A stretch of 64,000 nucleotides of DNA. Origin: Gemmatimonadota bacterium (lineage in GTDB: Bacteria > Gemmatimonadota > Gemmatimonadetes > Gemmatimonadales > GWC2-71-9). Of the stretch, positions 24,846 through 30,470 are shown piece after piece (position 1 is the stretch's first letter; each line of letters begins with the position of its first letter). The position numbers and the translations under genes are program-made. The stretch spans positions 1 to 64,000 of the forward strand of contig JAZDCY010000098.1 in the NCBI GenBank assembly GCA_036679645.1, given 5' to 3'. The notes beneath the pieces are model-generated. The model had not been told where the DNA came from. It saw only the letters and a list, made by a program, of their open reading frames with translations, and did not search any database.

Positions 24846-25727
24846 GTGACCGCTCGCCGTCCTCCAATCGAGCTGTTCGACACCACGTTCCAGAATCCTA
24901 TCCTTCTCGCCGCCGGCACCGCCGGTTTCGGGCGCGAACTCCAAGGTGTGGTGGCGTTGGATCGATTGGGCGGCGTTATCACCAAGTCGGTTAGCGCGGA
25001 GCCTCGCGTAGGTCATCCGGCTCCACGCGTGGCGGAGTTTGCTGGCGGCATGATGAATTCAGTCGGTCTCGCGAACCCGGGTGTTCGCGCCGTGCAGGAG
25101 GTCGAGCTCCCATGGCTGGCGGCACACGCCGGCGGGGCTCGGGTCATAGTGAGCGTGGTGGGTGCAACAGTGGCCGAGTATGTCGCAGTCGTGACCGAGC
25201 TGGAGGGAGAGGAGATCGTCACGGCGTTCGAGCTGAATCTCTCGTGCCCTAACAGCGAGCGCGGTGGCGAGCACTTTGGGGCGGATGATCGGGTGCTCGA
25301 GGGTCTCGTTGCCCAGTGCCGGCAGGCCAGTACTAGGCCTATCATCGCCAAGCTGGCGCCAACGCTCCCCGATGTGGCGCGGACGGCCAGTATCGCTGCT
25401 GGCGCGGGGGCCGATGCAATCGCGGTGGTGAACACTTTCCCCGGATTTCTCTTCTCGGCCGACTCGGGAACGACCGATCGGTTACCGCTCCTGGGTGCGG
25501 GCCAGGGTGGAGTGAGCGGCCCGGCGCTCCTGGCCGTAGGAATCCAGGCGACCCGCCGCGTGCGAGAGGCGACCGAACTGCCGGTGATCGGGGTCGGTGG
25601 CATTCGGCGGCCGGACGACGTGCGGCAGTACCTGGATGCGGGGGCAGCTCTCGTGGCGGTGGGTACGGCGGCGCTGGCGGATCCTCGTATCCCCGAGCGA
25701 CTCGCTGAGGCGTGGATGCGTGGCTGA
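24846..25727 (+). CDS. pyrD: Dihydroorotate dehydrogenase (class 1) catalytic subunit
   Basis: NSVGLANPG, ELNLSCPN, KLAP, GGVSGPA and IGVGGI motifs. Confidence 0.93.
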   Translation: MTARRPPIELFDTTFQNPILLAAGTAGFGRELQGVVALDRLGGVITKSVSAEPRVGHPAPRVAEFAGGMMNSVGLANPGVRAVQEVELPWLAAHAGGARVIVSVVGATVAEYVAVVTELEGEEIVTAFELNLSCPNSERGGEHFGADDRVLEGLVAQCRQASTRPIIAKLAPTLPDVARTASIAAGAGADAIAVVNTFPGFLFSADSGTTDRLPLLGAGQGGVSGPALLAVGIQATRRVREATELPVIGVGGIRRPDDVRQYLDAGAALVAVGTAALADPRIPERLAEAWMRG

Positions 25728-26383
25728 GGTGATCGTAGCGCTCGACCAGCCGACCGAGGCGGAAGCACTGGCCCTGGTGGATGAGTTGGACGGGCCGCGC
25801 TGGGTGAAGGTGGGTGCCACCCTCTTCGCCTCCGCGGGTCCGTCGGTGGTGACCGCGCTGCGCGCCCGGGAAATCGAGGTGTTCCTGGATCTCAAGTGGC
25901 ACGATATTCCGCATCAGGTGGAGGGGGCCGTATGCGCGGCGGCCAATCTCGGCGTCGCGCTGGCGACGGTCCATGCCTTGGGCGGGCCGTCGATGCTCGA
26001 GGTGGCAGCACGAGCAGCGGCGACCACCGGTATCGACGTGGTGGCCGTCACGGTCCTGACCTCGCACACGGCGGACGAGTTTGGACGGGTGATCGGTCGG
26101 CCGGACGTGTCTGGGCTGCAGCGAGACGTGGAACGGCTAACCGTGCTCGCTAGGGACGCCCACCTCGCCGGTGTGGTGGCCTCTGCCGATGAGGCAGCGG
26201 CAGCCCGGCAGTTGCTTGGGCCCGGAGGCATCATTGTAGTCCCGGGCATTCGTCTCGCGGAGGATGAGGCGGACGACCAGCGGAGAACGGCCAGTCCGGC
26301 TCGGGCCCTGGCGGCGGCGGTCGATCACGCGAGCCAAGAGCCCGCGAGCGGTGTATCAGCAGGTAATGGAGGTTGTCACGTGA
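25720..26383 (+). pseudogene. pyrF: Orotidine-5'-phosphate decarboxylase with a frameshifting deletion near the 3' end
   Basis: IVALD, DLKWHDIPHQ, VTVLTS, VPGIR and DDQRR, then a shift near 26317 to RSITRAKSPRAVYQQVMEVVT* (TGA 26381-26383). Confidence 0.8.
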
Positions 26384-26811
26384 TACGTGGAGTTCATGCG
26401 TCAGGCCTGATCGCTGGGCTGGTCCTCGTCGCTGCCGCGGGCCGAGTGGGCGCCCAGACACCGCTCGATCAGGTGGTGGAACGGGCGCGGGGCGCCTGGC
26501 TGGCCCATGCCGCACGCGCATTGGTGGAGCACAGCGATACCGTCCGGTTGCGGATCCCTGGGGTCGCAATCTCGGCGGCGGTCCGGCCAGGGCAGGCGGC
26601 GCGCCTGCTAGAGCGCTATTTCGAATCGACCGAGGAAGCGGGCTTCGAGTTGCGTGGTATCAGGCACGTCGGTGCCGACCACGCGTACGCAGAGTTGCTC
26701 CGCCGGTTCGTGGTCCAGGGCACGGACGACGAGCGGGAGGAAACGGTCTTCTTTGGGTTCCGCGTGATCGGCGGTGAATGGCGTCTGCGCGAGGTGCGTG
26801 TTACGCCGTAA
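26380..26811 (+). CDS. Hypothetical exported protein (143 aa)
   Basis: GTG overlaps the shifted-frame pyrF stop (GTGA); SD GGAGG; signal-peptide-like N-terminus. Appears fused to pyrF in the ORF track. Confidence 0.7.
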   Translation: MIRGVHASGLIAGLVLVAAAGRVGAQTPLDQVVERARGAWLAHAARALVEHSDTVRLRIPGVAISAAVRPGQAARLLERYFESTEEAGFELRGIRHVGADHAYAELLRRFVVQGTDDEREETVFFGFRVIGGEWRLREVRVTP

Positions 26812-26879
26812 CGGTAATGGCCCAGTTTGAATTGTGACAAAGTTGCGGCCAGGCTGGCCACCACACTAGGTTCAGATTC

Positions 26880-27089
26880 ATGGCCGGAAAAGAACTCACC
26901 CTCGATCAATGGGAGACCATTGTCCGCGATCTGACCGCGATCACGGAACGAATTGATAGGGCCAAGGACGGTCTTGATCGGCATAAGGCAGGGCAACGCG
27001 CGGTCTGGGACGAGCTTGACCTTGCCGAGGCTCGCCTTCAGGGTTTGTCGATGTTCCTCGGACTGCTCGTTGATCGTGCCGAAGTTTAA
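26880..27089 (+). CDS. Hypothetical helical protein (69 aa), IS passenger
   Basis: ATG start, amphipathic helical pattern, overlaps the next ORF. Confidence 0.6.
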   Translation: MAGKELTLDQWETIVRDLTAITERIDRAKDGLDRHKAGQRAVWDELDLAEARLQGLSMFLGLLVDRAEV

Positions 27090-27348
27090 GGACCCCGACG
27101 ACGCGAAGCTCCGCGAGGACACCGCCGAGACGGCCTCTCGGACGCTTCAGGAAGCGATAGGCGCACGGCCCAAGACCGTGGTGCCGCCATCGGAGCGCAC
27201 TGACGCGGAGAAGGACGCGCAGGCAGTCGAGCGGGGCCGGAAAGGTGGGGAGAAGGGCGGGAAGGCGCGGGCCGAAGGGATGACCGAAGACCAGAAAGCT
27301 GAGGTCGCCCGGCTCGCCGCGACGGCTCGCTGGCGAAAGACTGACTAA
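27076..27348 (+). CDS. Small protein with a KGG-like basic motif, IS-associated
   Basis: AVERGRKGGEKGGKARAEGMTEDQKAEVARLAATARW; GTG start at 27076. Confidence 0.75.
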   Translation: MPKFKDPDDAKLREDTAETASRTLQEAIGARPKTVVPPSERTDAEKDAQAVERGRKGGEKGGKARAEGMTEDQKAEVARLAATARWRKTD

Positions 27349-27359
27349 CTCTCCGACAA

Positions 27360-27839
27360 CTAGGCCGCCTCCGCGTCACTCTCCCCATCCAACTCTACGA
27401 CATCGCGAGTGAAATCCAGCACCAACTGAATTGGTGGAGTCTCTGCGTGTAGCTCGTTGAAGAACCGCACATCGTTGCTAAGCTGGCGGCAGTCGTAGAC
27501 AATGGAGTTTCGGCGCTGAGCCACAGAGATTCGCATGAACTCTGGTGATGTCGTGCGGATGTCGTCCCAGAACGTACCCTGCTCACCATCACGCCTCCTG
27601 GTCCTCGCGGGTACCTTCGCCCGAACGCGGTGCCCATGAGCGTCTGTCAGGTGTTCATCGCGCATGGAGTCGGCGATGAAGCTGCCACAGACACGAAGCT
27701 TGTCCTCACGACCGATCTCCCACATCCCACGGCCTAGGACCCACTCGGCAATCTCCGTTGCCTTCGCGGGCCAAGCACCACCAGCAAGTCGATACTCTCG
27801 AACAATACGCTGGCCCTGCTTCATGTAATGCGATGACAT
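27360..27839 (-). CDS. Hypothetical protein (159 aa), third gene of the higBA operon
   Basis: ATG 21 nt after the higA stop with an AGGA SD; globular composition. Confidence 0.8.
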   Translation of the reverse strand: MSSHYMKQGQRIVREYRLAGGAWPAKATEIAEWVLGRGMWEIGREDKLRVCGSFIADSMRDEHLTDAHGHRVRAKVPARTRRRDGEQGTFWDDIRTTSPEFMRISVAQRRNSIVYDCRQLSNDVRFFNELHAETPPIQLVLDFTRDVVELDGESDAEAA

Positions 27840-27860
27840 CGGACGATTCCTATTCTTGGG

Positions 27861-28985
27861 TTACCGAAGACCGATCTCAGGTGTGCTGCCAAAACCATCT
27901 ACCAATGCTGTTGAGGCGACAACGTGCCTGATCTTCGCAAGGTGACGCACGTACCTATTCCATTGATCGAATCGCTTGCGAAGCTGCCCTGCCACGAGCC
28001 CGGAGTGTCGGTCGATGCTATGCGCGAACCGGCGAATGTTATCATCGGTGAACAGCGGCCCCTTACGAGCCACAAAATCATCCAACAGCGCCTGGGGAAC
28101 GCAGAACTCGGCCGCTGCTCGGTTGGCCTTCCGTTCCTGCTCAGACACGTCATCCCCGGCTCGATCCACGTCGCTGTCGATCATGACTGCGTCTTTCCCG
28201 TCACCATTCAAGACATGCTCGATCTCATGCCGTAGGACGAACCAGAAGTTGTCGATCCGATCCTCCTTGAGCGACATGCCAATAACCGGCTTCTTCGGCT
28301 CGGGCCAGAAACAGACACCGTCCACGCGAAGCCCTGGCAACTTCTCCACTACGACGAATCTCACGCCCGCCTCTGCAAGAATTCGTGGAACCTGGTGGGC
28401 GTCATCCGGCGACCGAAGAAGCTCACCAAGTCTGTCGAGGGCCGCCTCCAGTTTGTGATTAGAGTAGGGAGCCACCGTAAGGGTCTGTGCCAGTTGCTTG
28501 ACTCTCAGGAGCCATGCTTCCTGCGTTGTCGTCGTTTCCGCATCGTAGGATGTCTGCTTCGCTGCGTAGGCCAGCTTTGGCCGTTGGCTCAATTCGGGAA
28601 CGCCGAGAAACTTGAGCACGTCACTTTCAAGCACATCGGTGTTTTTTGACGCCGTAATCCACCCCCGAATCGACATCTCTCGAACGGGACACCGCTCCCG
28701 AAGCCGCGCCCTGCGTGAAATACGCTTCGGTGCGGCTTCGGTGTTGGTCAAGCGGTAGGCGGCCTCTAGGTTGAGCCACAACTCGGCACCCGTGCCCAAC
28801 GCTGCCGCCAGCTCCTTGGCGATCTCGGGGGTAATAGCACGCTTCCCCTTCACAATCTGGCTGACCGCAGAAGCAGGTCGGCCGATAATGTCTGCGAACT
28901 CTGCCTGGCTCCAGCCCCGTGCGTCTAACTCGTCGCTCAGGTACTCACCAGGAGGGAATGTCTCTGCTGGGATGCGCGTATTCAT
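27861..28985 (-). CDS. HigA-type XRE HTH antitoxin fused to an ImmA/IrrE-type metallopeptidase
   Basis: N-terminal FPPGEYLSDELDARGWSQAEFA...KRAITPEIA...WLNLE; C-terminal RIDNFWFVLRHEIEH (HEXXH) and ERKANRAA. Confidence 0.88.
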   Translation of the reverse strand: MNTRIPAETFPPGEYLSDELDARGWSQAEFADIIGRPASAVSQIVKGKRAITPEIAKELAAALGTGAELWLNLEAAYRLTNTEAAPKRISRRARLRERCPVREMSIRGWITASKNTDVLESDVLKFLGVPELSQRPKLAYAAKQTSYDAETTTTQEAWLLRVKQLAQTLTVAPYSNHKLEAALDRLGELLRSPDDAHQVPRILAEAGVRFVVVEKLPGLRVDGVCFWPEPKKPVIGMSLKEDRIDNFWFVLRHEIEHVLNGDGKDAVMIDSDVDRAGDDVSEQERKANRAAAEFCVPQALLDDFVARKGPLFTDDNIRRFAHSIDRHSGLVAGQLRKRFDQWNRYVRHLAKIRHVVASTALVDGFGSTPEIGLR

Positions 28986-29001
28986 CGGTACACCACCCTC
29001 G

Positions 29002-29298
29002 TCAGTGGTAGTCGACAATCTCTATCACTCCAATTCGTTTCTTGGGCGCCTCGCCGCGAATCTCCAAAATCAGGCGCCATTGGTCGTTCAGTTTCATCGA
29101 GTGCTGGTCGGCGCGATCTCTTTCGAGCTTTTTGAAGTTGAGACCGCGCATGGCGTACAGATCGCGTTCGTCCACGGCAGCGCGAATGAACCCAATCGCC
29201 TTCCGGAACCCCTTCACAATGGCTGGCGCTAACCCGGCCGTGAATCCGGGGTCTGTTTCCAGCCGATCAAGGTCAGGATCGTCATACTCGATTTCCAT
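29002..29298 (-). CDS. higB: HigB/RelE-superfamily toxin (plasmid-maintenance killer type)
   Basis: LNFKKL..DR..QHSMKLNDQWRLI...IVDYH; toxin-first order. Confidence 0.9.
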   Translation of the reverse strand: MEIEYDDPDLDRLETDPGFTAGLAPAIVKGFRKAIGFIRAAVDERDLYAMRGLNFKKLERDRADQHSMKLNDQWRLILEIRGEAPKKRIGVIEIVDYH

Positions 29299-29406
29299 GC
29301 CCTAGTACATTAAGCCTTGAGCGCAGTTACCGCAATAGCGAAATTATGAAATTCGGTAATTCGCTGCCTGACCTTGCTTGAGCATTTGACTAGGTTGCCT
29401 GTGACA

Positions 29407-30252
29407 ATGAATAAGCTCCCCGTTGCAAGGCAGGCGGCCATTCTCCGGGCCCTCACGGAAGGCAACTCCAGCCGGGCGACCGCCCGGCTGGTCGGGATCT
29501 CCAAGACGACGGTTCTCAAGCTCCTGGTCGAGGTGGGGGAGTTCTGTGAGTTTTACCAGGACAAAGTCCTGCGGAACCTGCCGTGCACGCGGATCGAGGC
29601 CGGCGAGATTTGGGCCTTCGTCGGGGCCAAGCAGAAGCGCGCCACCCGGAAGGGCGACGGGGACATTTGGACATTCACGGCGATCTGTGCCGACACCAAG
29701 CTCATGGTCTCGTGGTCGGTCGGGTATCGGACTCACGCGTATGCCCACGCCTTCATCGAGGATGTGGCCTCGCGACTAACCAACAGAGTCCAGTTCACCA
29801 CGGACGGCCACCACATGTACCTGTCGGCGGTCGAAGAAGCCTTCGGCTACGGCGGCGTGGACTACGCGCAACTGGTGAAGATTTACAAGTCAGCGCCTGG
29901 TGTCGGATACAGCCCCGGCGAGTGCATCGGGACTCAGAAGGAACGGATCATGGGGCGGCCCGATCCCGAGAACGTGTCCACCAGTTACGTGGAGCGGTCA
30001 AACCTCAGCATCCGAATGGGGATGCGGCGGTTCACCCGGTTGACGAACGCCTTCAGCAAGAAGGTGGAGAACCACGCGCACGCCGTGGCCCTCTACTTCA
30101 TGCATTACAACTTCTGCCGCCCGCATCAGACGCTGACGAAGAAGGCCAACGGAGTGAAGGTCACGCCCGCAATGGCGAACGGGTTGACGGACCGGGTGTG
30201 GACGATGGAAGACGTTTTGGACCGCATGAATCCAGCTCGATTGTTACAATGA
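29407..30252 (+). CDS. IS1-family DDE transposase (single ORF, N-terminal HTH)
   Basis: EGNSSRATARLVGISKTTV HTH, (G)EIWAFV, TTDG, STSYVERSNLSIR, RRFTRLTNAFSKK, YNFCRPH and TPAMA motifs; stop codon lies in the right inverted repeat. Confidence 0.93.
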   Translation: MNKLPVARQAAILRALTEGNSSRATARLVGISKTTVLKLLVEVGEFCEFYQDKVLRNLPCTRIEAGEIWAFVGAKQKRATRKGDGDIWTFTAICADTKLMVSWSVGYRTHAYAHAFIEDVASRLTNRVQFTTDGHHMYLSAVEEAFGYGGVDYAQLVKIYKSAPGVGYSPGECIGTQKERIMGRPDPENVSTSYVERSNLSIRMGMRRFTRLTNAFSKKVENHAHAVALYFMHYNFCRPHQTLTKKANGVKVTPAMANGLTDRVWTMEDVLDRMNPARLLQ

Positions 30253-30283
30253 ACATGGGCCACTACCCGCCGTAACCCCTCAC

Positions 30284-30312
30284 TTGCGGTACATTTAGGC
30301 CCTCTCTATATT
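30284..30312 (+). promoter_or_regulatory. Putative sigma70 promoter of the rpmJ-rplQ operon
   Basis: TTGCGG-N17-TATATT upstream of an AAGGAG SD and rpmJ. Confidence 0.6.
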
Positions 30313-30353: not shown

Positions 30354-30470
30354 TTGAAAGTTCGCTCGAGCGTTCGCCCCATGTGCGAGCACTGCAAAGT
30401 GGTCCGTCGCCGTGGTGTCACGCTCATCACCTGCAAGCGCAATCCCAAGCACAAGCAACGGCAGGGATAA
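30354..30470 (+). CDS. rpmJ: 50S ribosomal protein L36
   Basis: TTG start; [38 protein letters not shown]; absent from the ORF track. Confidence 0.97.

Follow-up and report, generated by a model that had tools for sequence, protein, structure and literature searches.

We analysed a stretch of 64,000 nucleotides, called the window below, from a Gemmatimonadota bacterium (assembly GCA_036679645.1, contig JAZDCY010000098.1, positions 1 to 64,000), in which a transposon of the IS1 family of insertion sequences (IS) lies directly in front of the ribosomal protein gene rpmJ. The element occupies positions 26813-30267 (3,455 bp) and is flanked on each side by an exact copy of CGCCGTAAC, a target-site duplication (TSD) that stops at 9 bp, since the bases flanking it differ (A and C). 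Its left end at 26813 reads GGTAATGGCCCA, and its right end at 30267 reads GGTAGTGGCCCA after reverse complementation. The tips of these two inverted repeats (IRs) match at 11 of 12 positions, and an inner box matches at 9 of 10 with an offset of one base (26831-26840 versus 30241-30250). The G+C content, 62-71% over the preceding 2 kb, falls to 56-63% within the element. One transposase open reading frame (ORF) at 29407-30252 takes up 24% of its length, and five further ORFs precede it. A preliminary description of this DNA had recognised a complete IS1-family element with these limits, end matches and duplication and with a single transposase in its right quarter, and all of this is reproduced here. 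The most telling feature is absent from that description: the element stands at a fixed position, 7 bp upstream of a -35 box of the sigma70 type.

The -35 box of the predicted rpmJ-rpsM promoter begins 7 bp past the right duplication and 16 bp from the element end, and the pattern TTGC...TATAT is conserved at the same spot in close relatives. Orthologues of the host gene upstream are found in 21 of the 31 genomes searched, the window's own genome included. When the element and one copy of the duplication are removed, 84 bp separate this gene from rpmJ. In a genome of the same genus (G001) the gap is 83 bp with a single CGCCGTAAC, which is the empty site with one 9-bp copy anticipated in the preliminary description; CGCCGTAAC is also single-copy in another genome (G010). 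Overall, 19 loci were compared, one of them without a usable match, and the full element is absent in all 18 relatives assessed, with gaps of 75-179 bp between the upstream gene and rpmJ; nor do these relatives have the passenger genes at this position without the transposase, the cassette of G001 being located on another contig. A second genome of the same genus (G002) has about 95 extra bases at the site. They finish with a tip that resembles an IR (matrix score 18.2, the window's own right end having 16.5) and lies 16 bp from the same TTGC; apart from this IR tip, the remnant does not match the right end of the window element.

The register was then examined across the family of related elements, where a complete element is one whose IR pair matches at 11 or more of 14 positions and whose TSD is perfect, the end search requiring the pattern GGnnnTG. 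The first set, which is the source of the promoter idea, has 80 genome loci and yields 49 complete elements; the 31 loci dropped include 29 without an end pair, many of them cut by contig ends, one with a weak pair (L027) and one with an imperfect TSD (L088). The held-out second set has 115 further loci (35 phylum-genome stretches and 80 metagenome contigs) and yields 50 elements, or 47 without duplicate sites, with 68 loci dropped (65 for want of an end pair, 3 as duplicate sites). The TSD is 8 bp in 48 elements and 9 bp in one in the first set, and 8 bp in 41 and 9 bp in 9 in the second, duplicates still included. The family IR consensus begins GGTAGTG, and the elements have a median size of 3.1 kb, ranging from 2 to 6 kb, with highly variable cargo. 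Hosts named in the transposase tree belong to nine phyla, and the closest relatives of the window element are in Gemmatimonadales/Gemmatimonadetes. In this phylum 29 of 401 genomes match the family, mostly in single copy, in a tally that takes in one unpublished genome (G170), which bears on none of the other results.

In the flank alignment of the first set, 20 of 94 flanks have a TTG that begins at a distance of 15 bases from the IR. In the held-out set it begins at 15, 16 and 17 bases in 14, 6 and 4 of 82 flanks, and TAnnnT is in register in 9, 7 and 5. When the spacer is counted from the TSD outward, TTG at spacers 6, 7, 8 and 9 is present in 3, 22, 4 and 0 of 96 flanks of the first set and in 1, 17, 6 and 1 of 82 flanks of the second, giving pooled counts of 4, 39, 10 and 1. 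The background of TTG is 1.4-1.6% per flank, and the top count is 6 at any spacer from 12 to 99. The nominal p values of the peak at spacer 7, 2e-19 and 3e-15 in the two sets, are overstated as the elements are related. Full promoters with both TTG and TAnnnT at spacers 7-8 number 9 and 14 in the two sets, compared with 3 and 3 summed over all spacers from 12 to 79. TTG is found at spacer 7 or 8 in 48 of 89 elements, as a rule on one side (on both sides in 4, against 7.3 expected). A different TTG peak 5 bp from the IR, seen in 10 of 94 flanks of the first set, was dropped, being not repeated in the second.

The aligned targets give a sigma70-like logo, TTG-A/C-C-A, with the A of the -10 box in 27 of 37 and its last T in 19 of 37. 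Among the 36 elements without TTG on either side, 11 keep TAnnnT in register (control mean 1.3, maximum 4), which shows that the whole promoter is sensed and not TTG alone. The distance also tracks the length of the TSD: a promoter was called for 51 elements, of which 44 have an 8-bp duplication and 7 a 9-bp one; 34 of the 44 end 15 bp from the -35 box, and 7 of the 7 end 16-17 bp from it. This shift points to a fixed promoter-proximal cut. The 9-bp elements face the promoter by their right end in all 7 cases (6 of them asymmetric), and the asymmetric 8-bp elements split into 5 left and 5 right. Genes behind the called promoters include those of L36, S16, S1, IF-3, EF-P, ArgRS, Sdh and CoxII as well as tRNA clusters, and 17 of 24 ORFs scanned there have a Pfam family.

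The same promoters are used repeatedly. That of rpmJ is occupied also in L021 (16 bp from the -35 box) and L023 (15 bp, with the left end off the contig). In L102 (G281:C24) two stacked elements, a remnant and a full one, lie between the upstream gene and rpmJ, at 15-17 bp according to the reading of the junction; the complete one shares HigB, peptidase, orfC and orfB with the window and has about 1.7 kb in addition. In the window and in L021, the duplication equals the genome's own local sequence. In a quick tree the transposases of the rpmJ sites are spread over different subclades and do not make up one clade, which suggests that the promoter was hit independently. L022, L136 and L139 share another hotspot, at the promoter of an HNH-domain gene. 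Elsewhere, IR tips are duplicated or stacked at element ends (L030:4594-4625, the right flank of L053 and the left flank of L049), which fits repeated insertion at one site.

Besides the transposase, the family has a second core gene, orfB, which is found in 92 of 96 elements (48 of 49 in the first set and 44 of 47 in the held-out set, using a hidden Markov model built from the first set) and mostly ends 260-350 bp from the left end. In the protein, a motif at the N-terminus is conserved and the helix at the C-terminus is basic; OrfB matches no Pfam family, its sole PDB sequence match has E 0.34, and its Atlas clusters are unnamed or called 'histone H1' only. The preliminary description had counted five passenger ORFs. 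The five ORFs are indeed there, while orfB is a core gene rather than a passenger, and orfA may not be a gene, with no clear homologue in the sequences searched and no match in the transposase-linked loci. In the window's own genome (G000), an orphan ORF at C50:1318-1644 carries the C-terminal motif of OrfB (E 2.3e-08), and no transposase match is present there except the window's. Two distant plasmid transposases (L250 and L251) have no element ends around them.

Taking these results together, we consider it probable that this cargo-carrying IS1-family transposon, 7 bp upstream of the predicted rpmJ -35 box, was placed like its family by docking on promoter-bound RNA polymerase, and that the window copy is now stranded. 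The transposase would bind both ends and make two staggered cuts in the target. The cut near the promoter would be kept at 7, in some cases 8, bp from the -35 box, and the far cut would fall 8 or 9 bp further out, for which reason 8-bp duplications would leave the element end at 15 bp and 9-bp duplications at 16-17 bp. The ruler would be the RNA polymerase holoenzyme, through sigma region 4 or the alpha C-terminal domain, and the contact would be made by the transposase or by the small basic protein OrfB. Such a landing spot may serve as a safe harbour, in which neither the core promoter nor the stop codon of the preceding gene is disrupted, so that elements of 2-6 kb could be tolerated beside essential operons. 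The cost to the host is likely small because that stop codon and 16 bp in front of the -35 box are kept; the output of rpmJ may still be altered by transcription running on out of the transposase gene and by the loss of promoter elements further upstream. The cargo, in turn, could act as a stress- or phage-triggered switch with a helix-turn-helix (HTH) peptidase and OrfC as its core and HigB as an add-on, and would likely favour keeping the stranded copy.

Several points weigh against this explanation. TTG is missing at the register in 41 of 89 elements and a promoter call in 46 of 97; these promoter-less elements could come from other sigma factors, weak promoters or untargeted events. The promoters are sequence predictions with ad hoc weights, and a strict consensus scan misses the window's own rpmJ promoter, which is too far from the consensus. 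The flanks are not fully independent of one another, owing to kinship among the elements and to hotspots in common (L090/L176, L136/L139), and the counts include four elements of doubtful status (L032, L053, L133, L162). Two of the plasmid elements examined are split, L252 having TTGAC at spacer 7 and L217 nothing. As to the contact with RNA polymerase, it is one that we infer. L032 and L179, in which orfB is not detectable, are still at promoters, which weakens OrfB as an adaptor, though a later loss is possible. A predicted complex that combines OrfB, the transposase of a relative, domain 4 of E. coli sigma70 and the alpha C-terminal domain scores 0.00 with an uncertain OrfB fold, and favours neither side. 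Within L032, from 8401 onward, a pyrF-like gene appears as cargo; the element call is perhaps wrong or the gene captured.

The register might instead be read directly, with the N-terminal HTH of the transposase or OrfB recognising the -35 sequence or the shape of promoter DNA and making no contact with RNA polymerase. The transposase HTH does match Sigma70_r4_2 weakly (E 0.0066, under the cut-off), a SigM model is matched by 2 of 88 relatives, and the family IRs have TTGA at nucleotides 15-18, at a similar distance from a cut. However, generic HTH matches are common, and the -10 boxes kept in register without TTG are about 30 bp from the cut. Moreover, at position 5 the targets have C in 23 of 37 cases, as in the sigma70 hexamer, where the IR has A in 101 of 141, and TTG is targeted equally often by elements whose IRs lack it. 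The rate of TTG in the target is independent of TTG in the element's own IR (8/15 versus 42/79, p = 1.0), on which ground the idea that the target mimics the IR was rejected. We therefore regard direct readout as unlikely. Very unlikely is random insertion without targeting, where only harmless sites upstream of promoters survive selection. It is true that all data are surviving insertions in natural genomes and that the family is mostly single-copy, with one copy in G000; yet selection would spare any upstream position, which does not fit a TTG peak of a single base, at spacer 7, nor a distance that shifts with TSD length, nor one promoter used in the same register in several genomes. Finally, it is hardly credible that the elements at rpmJ represent one old insertion inherited vertically, with turnover of cargo and loss from most relatives: an element is at rpmJ in four genomes of one phylum, the same-genus G002 has a remnant and L102 shares the gene set of the window, but G001 and 16 other relatives have short gaps and no element, the TSD pairs are perfect within a genome and different between genomes, the offsets vary (15, 16, up to 17) and the four transposases belong to different subclades, which contradicts such descent for L021, L023 and L102 and leaves shared ancestry possible with the G002 remnant alone.

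The transposase scores 34 bits against PF03400 (cut-off 24.1), and its best NCBIfam match is NF033558 with 58 bits, under the cut-off of 100. All 88 aligned family members match NF033558, and none of them matches a Mutator-type model (8 NCBIfam families matched at E 0.001), in a library that should include such models. The relatives on plasmids are named 'IS1 family transposase' in RefSeq/GenBank. There is no PDB sequence match for the transposase profile. Classical IS1 elements of the IS1A type have an insA/insB frameshift and an N-terminal zinc finger; here there are one ORF, an N-terminal HTH and no N-terminal cysteine pairs. The catalytic D-D-E triad is incomplete in the window copy, where D133 and E196 are present and position 66 is Gly. 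The relatives have Asp at this position in 80 of 80 cases in the first set and in 106 of 115 in the second (2 Asn, 1 Thr and 6 unaligned). DDE enzymes need all three acidic residues, and the window copy is thus likely inactive, immobile on its own and stranded by the change from Asp66 to Gly; it is probably not the self-mobilising unit that the preliminary description had assumed. An assembly error as the source of Gly66 is ruled out by a Logan contig with identical letters there, and no transposase that might act in trans is found in G000 (4.05 Mb, 92.7% complete). A search of this genome for copies elsewhere likewise gives no second copy of the element DNA or of the transposase. A recent insertion is plausible, the duplication being perfect, yet the catalytic residue is lost and the genome has one copy.

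Table 1. Features of the element and its surroundings in the window
Feature	Position	Strand	Details
Host gene upstream, 143 aa, no Pfam family	26380..26811	+	TAA stop preserved within left duplication
Left copy of 9-bp target-site duplication CGCCGTAAC	26804..26812		perfect repeat
Left inverted repeat, 12-bp tip and inner box 26831-26840	26813..26840	+	score 25.3, matrix of relatives' ends
orfA, putative gene, 69 aa, no family match	26880..27089	+	open frame only
orfB, 90-aa basic protein, core gene of family	27076..27348	+	relatives annotated 'histone H1'
orfC, 159-aa conserved protein	27360..27839	-	139 homologues; model pLDDT (predicted local distance difference test) 93
HigA-type XRE HTH fused to ImmA/IrrE Zn-peptidase	27861..28985	-	HEIEH motif intact; PF01381, PF06114, TIGR02607
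HigB/RelE-like toxin, 98 aa	29002..29298	-	PF05015 E 1.7e-05, 25.6 bits, cut-off 27; phrog_3066 E 5e-10
Divergent control region, higB / transposase gene	29299..29406		strict consensus scan calls no promoter
Copy of inner IR box over transposase start codon	29400..29411	+	11/12 direct repeat of 30242-30253
Single-ORF IS1-family DDE transposase, 281 aa, N-terminal HTH, no zinc finger	29407..30252	+	PF03400, NF033558
Codon 66, GGC (Gly), at first catalytic Asp position	29602..29604	+	same letters in Logan contig
Right inverted repeat, overlaps transposase stop codon	30241..30267	-	score 16.5, matrix of relatives' ends
Right copy of 9-bp target-site duplication CGCCGTAAC	30268..30276		perfect repeat
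Predicted sigma70-type promoter of rpmJ-rpsM	30284..30312	+	-35 TTGCGG 30284-30289, 17-bp spacer, -10 TATATT 30307-30312
rpmJ, ribosomal protein L36, first gene of host operon	30354..30470	+	PF00444; starts 41 bp past -10

The Logan contig, from run X1, spans the element with zero differing letters; X1 is perhaps the source sample, which makes it a second assembly and not a second sample. Neither an empty allele nor a circle junction is found among the X1 contigs, which drop rare variants. The start and stop codons of the transposase gene each lie in one copy of a direct repeat (11/12) with the sequence of the inner IR box, and the copy at the start codon, possibly an autoregulatory site for the transposase, is present in 4 of 97 elements (the window, L021, L137 and L139), all close relatives. 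Upstream of the element, an apparent frameshift of pyrF (25720-26383) at 26315, which joins it to the following gene, is due to a gap in the assembly, since 23 more bases stand here in the Logan contig. On another contig of G000 (C24:39983-40009) is a 27-bp palindrome that consists of two fused IR tips of the element family with no flanking duplication, and a similar collapsed palindrome adjoins L162; these are possibly footprints or minimal miniature inverted-repeat transposable elements. In addition, tRNA-like genes are seen inside relatives (L107:6720-6905, L048:6776-6862, L098:3006-3101 and L112:4346-4421), two of them called with the anticodon TTA, which reads a stop codon.

The cargo was predicted in the preliminary description to be of a toxin-antitoxin or defence type, and the HigB-like protein and the HTH-Zn-peptidase are in accordance with this. 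The peptidase fusion matches PD-Lambda-2_B (PDLC03982) with E 2.5e-45 over residues 6-355, nearly its full length, and TIGR02607 (HigA) above the cut-off; RmrA profiles match its HTH part weakly and partially (best E 1.9e-08). OrfC is modelled with three helices, a hairpin and two long helices. This fold has no Foldseek match at E 0.001 in PDB or BFVD, with a best VIA-align Z of 3.7, and the sequence matches no PDB entry and no family; weak rows suggesting a PadR/Fur-like protein were not trusted. None of 105 OrfC homologues matches PD-Lambda-2_C, whose model finds nothing in G000, and the HigB-like toxin does not match PD-Lambda-2_A. RmrT is matched by neither OrfC nor its homologues, and no PADLOC model gives a consistent match to OrfC.

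There are 19 transposase-linked loci with the peptidase, 18 of them distinct, and orfC comes after it in all 16 that extend far enough. HigB is found in half of the distinct loci (9 of 18), and the other nine have less than 155 bp between the peptidase match and the transposase, leaving no room for it. Further orfC loci have the peptidase upstream in 6 of 6 cases and HigB in 5. This obligate linkage, with HigB missing in half of the loci, indicates that peptidase and orfC form the core of the cargo and that HigB is optional. The cassette is also found without an annotated IS in the stretch shown, in one phage and two plasmids: near the integrase of a temperate-looking Achromobacter phage, and beside restriction and Abi genes on a plasmid. 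At L261 (G001:C39), away from the empty rpmJ site, higB, the peptidase and a truncated orfC are present, with no transposase match in G001.

With roughly even chances, the cassette is an abortive defence switch like PD-lambda-2 or RosmerTA, in which the peptidase would control OrfC as a toxin, substrate or sensor and HigB would be an optional second partner. The nearly full-length PD-Lambda-2_B match, the weaker RmrA matches, the obligate linkage and the phage and plasmid neighbourhoods argue for this, while the lack of PD-Lambda-2_A and _C matches (the C model has 374 positions, OrfC 159 residues) argues against it. An ordinary HigBA addiction module with orfC as an unrelated hitch-hiker seems improbable. 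The HigA match, the HigB-like toxin directly upstream and the RefSeq names of relatives (RelE/ParE toxin and HigA) speak in its favour, whereas orfC, and not HigB, is what constantly accompanies the peptidase. By the tests run, the cassette appears to resemble PD-lambda-2 and RosmerTA in layout and to be a member of neither.

Taken alone, the window element is an ordinary, probably dead transporter IS. The promoter targeting of its family is another matter and would surprise IS specialists, for in the literature searched promoter-tethered bacterial transposition is described for Mutator-like elements only, and the contact there is a proposed one. A second, unrelated and compact two-gene system makes the polymerase surface and the contacting protein directly testable. 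Targeting of promoters explains single elements beside ribosomal and tRNA operons, and a role in it is a candidate job for a very common hypothetical protein called 'histone H1'. The family could become the basis of a tool for inserting 2-6 kb of cargo with genes left intact, and peptidase-OrfC is an unnamed pair and a candidate anti-phage system. A more far-reaching version, which we hold tentatively and think less probable than its negation, is that a widespread IS1-family lineage independently evolved targeting in the style of Ty3, with its complex tethered to sigma70 RNA polymerase by OrfB as adaptor and cutting 7 bp from the -35 box, and that its elements are safe-harbour shuttles of swappable defence cassettes, among them an undescribed peptidase-OrfC system, beside housekeeping operons in at least nine phyla.

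Members of the IS1 family have GGnnnTG ends and 8-9-bp duplications. The ISMhu11 subgroup is marked by passenger genes, an HTH without zinc finger and lengths of 0.9-4.6 kb, features that the window element shares. Transporter ISs with passenger genes are known in IS1 and IS1595 (PMC8496243, citing Siguier et al. 2009). The window family is like those of IS1 in its IS1-type DDE transposase, GGnnnTG ends, 8-9-bp duplication, single transposase ORF, passengers on one or both sides and sizes of 2-6 kb. It is unlike them in the fixed register upstream of the -35 box and in the near-universal small basic gene by the left end, and the window copy differs also by lacking the first catalytic Asp. In the literature searched, no description of promoter targeting by the IS1 family or of such a small basic gene in it was found, and an earlier mention in the reviews that define IS1 and ISMhu11 is possible.

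For the cargo, PD-lambda-2 is the nearest system. According to Vassallo et al. 2022 (PMC9519451), its peptidase fusion is the toxic part and its third gene is needed for defence. The gene order (HigB-like toxin, Xre-HTH-peptidase, third gene) and the match of the middle gene are alike. By profile search, however, OrfC is unrelated to PD-Lambda-2_C, which is related to a P4 phage antitoxin, and has less than half its length, and the toxin has no PD-Lambda-2_A match and is missing in half of the relatives. RosmerTA, according to Millman et al. (bioRxiv 2022.05.11.491447), combines a Zn-peptidase antitoxin with a toxin of unknown function. The window cassette similarly pairs a Zn-peptidase regulator with a gene of unknown function, and differs in its weak RmrA match and in the optional HigB upstream of the peptidase.

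For the targeting, two comparisons can be made. Yeast Ty3 integrates at Pol III promoters via TFIIIB/TFIIIC, an analogy drawn in PMC3942029. As in Ty3, integration in the window family is tied to the promoter and is specific to position and not to sequence; unlike it, Ty3 is a eukaryotic retrotransposon with an integrase, and its contact is established, where that of the window family is one that we infer. Closer are TnGBS, ISLre2 (p-MULT 3) and ISKra4 (p-MULT 4), which are Mutator-like and insert 15-17 bp upstream of the -35 box of housekeeping-sigma (sigma-A) promoters (PMC3942029). Contact with RNA polymerase is proposed for them too, either orientation is used where the IRs are near-perfect, and the targeting signature lies in the transposase (PMC3942029). 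The window element, 16 bp upstream of a predicted -35 box and with the register family-wide in two sets, is alike in position. It differs in that orientation in its family is not simply set by IR asymmetry, in a second conserved gene, orfB, as a candidate for targeting, and in a transposase of the IS1 type and not of the Mutator type. Since all 88 relatives match the IS1 model and none a Mutator-type one, the habit of targeting promoters looks convergent.

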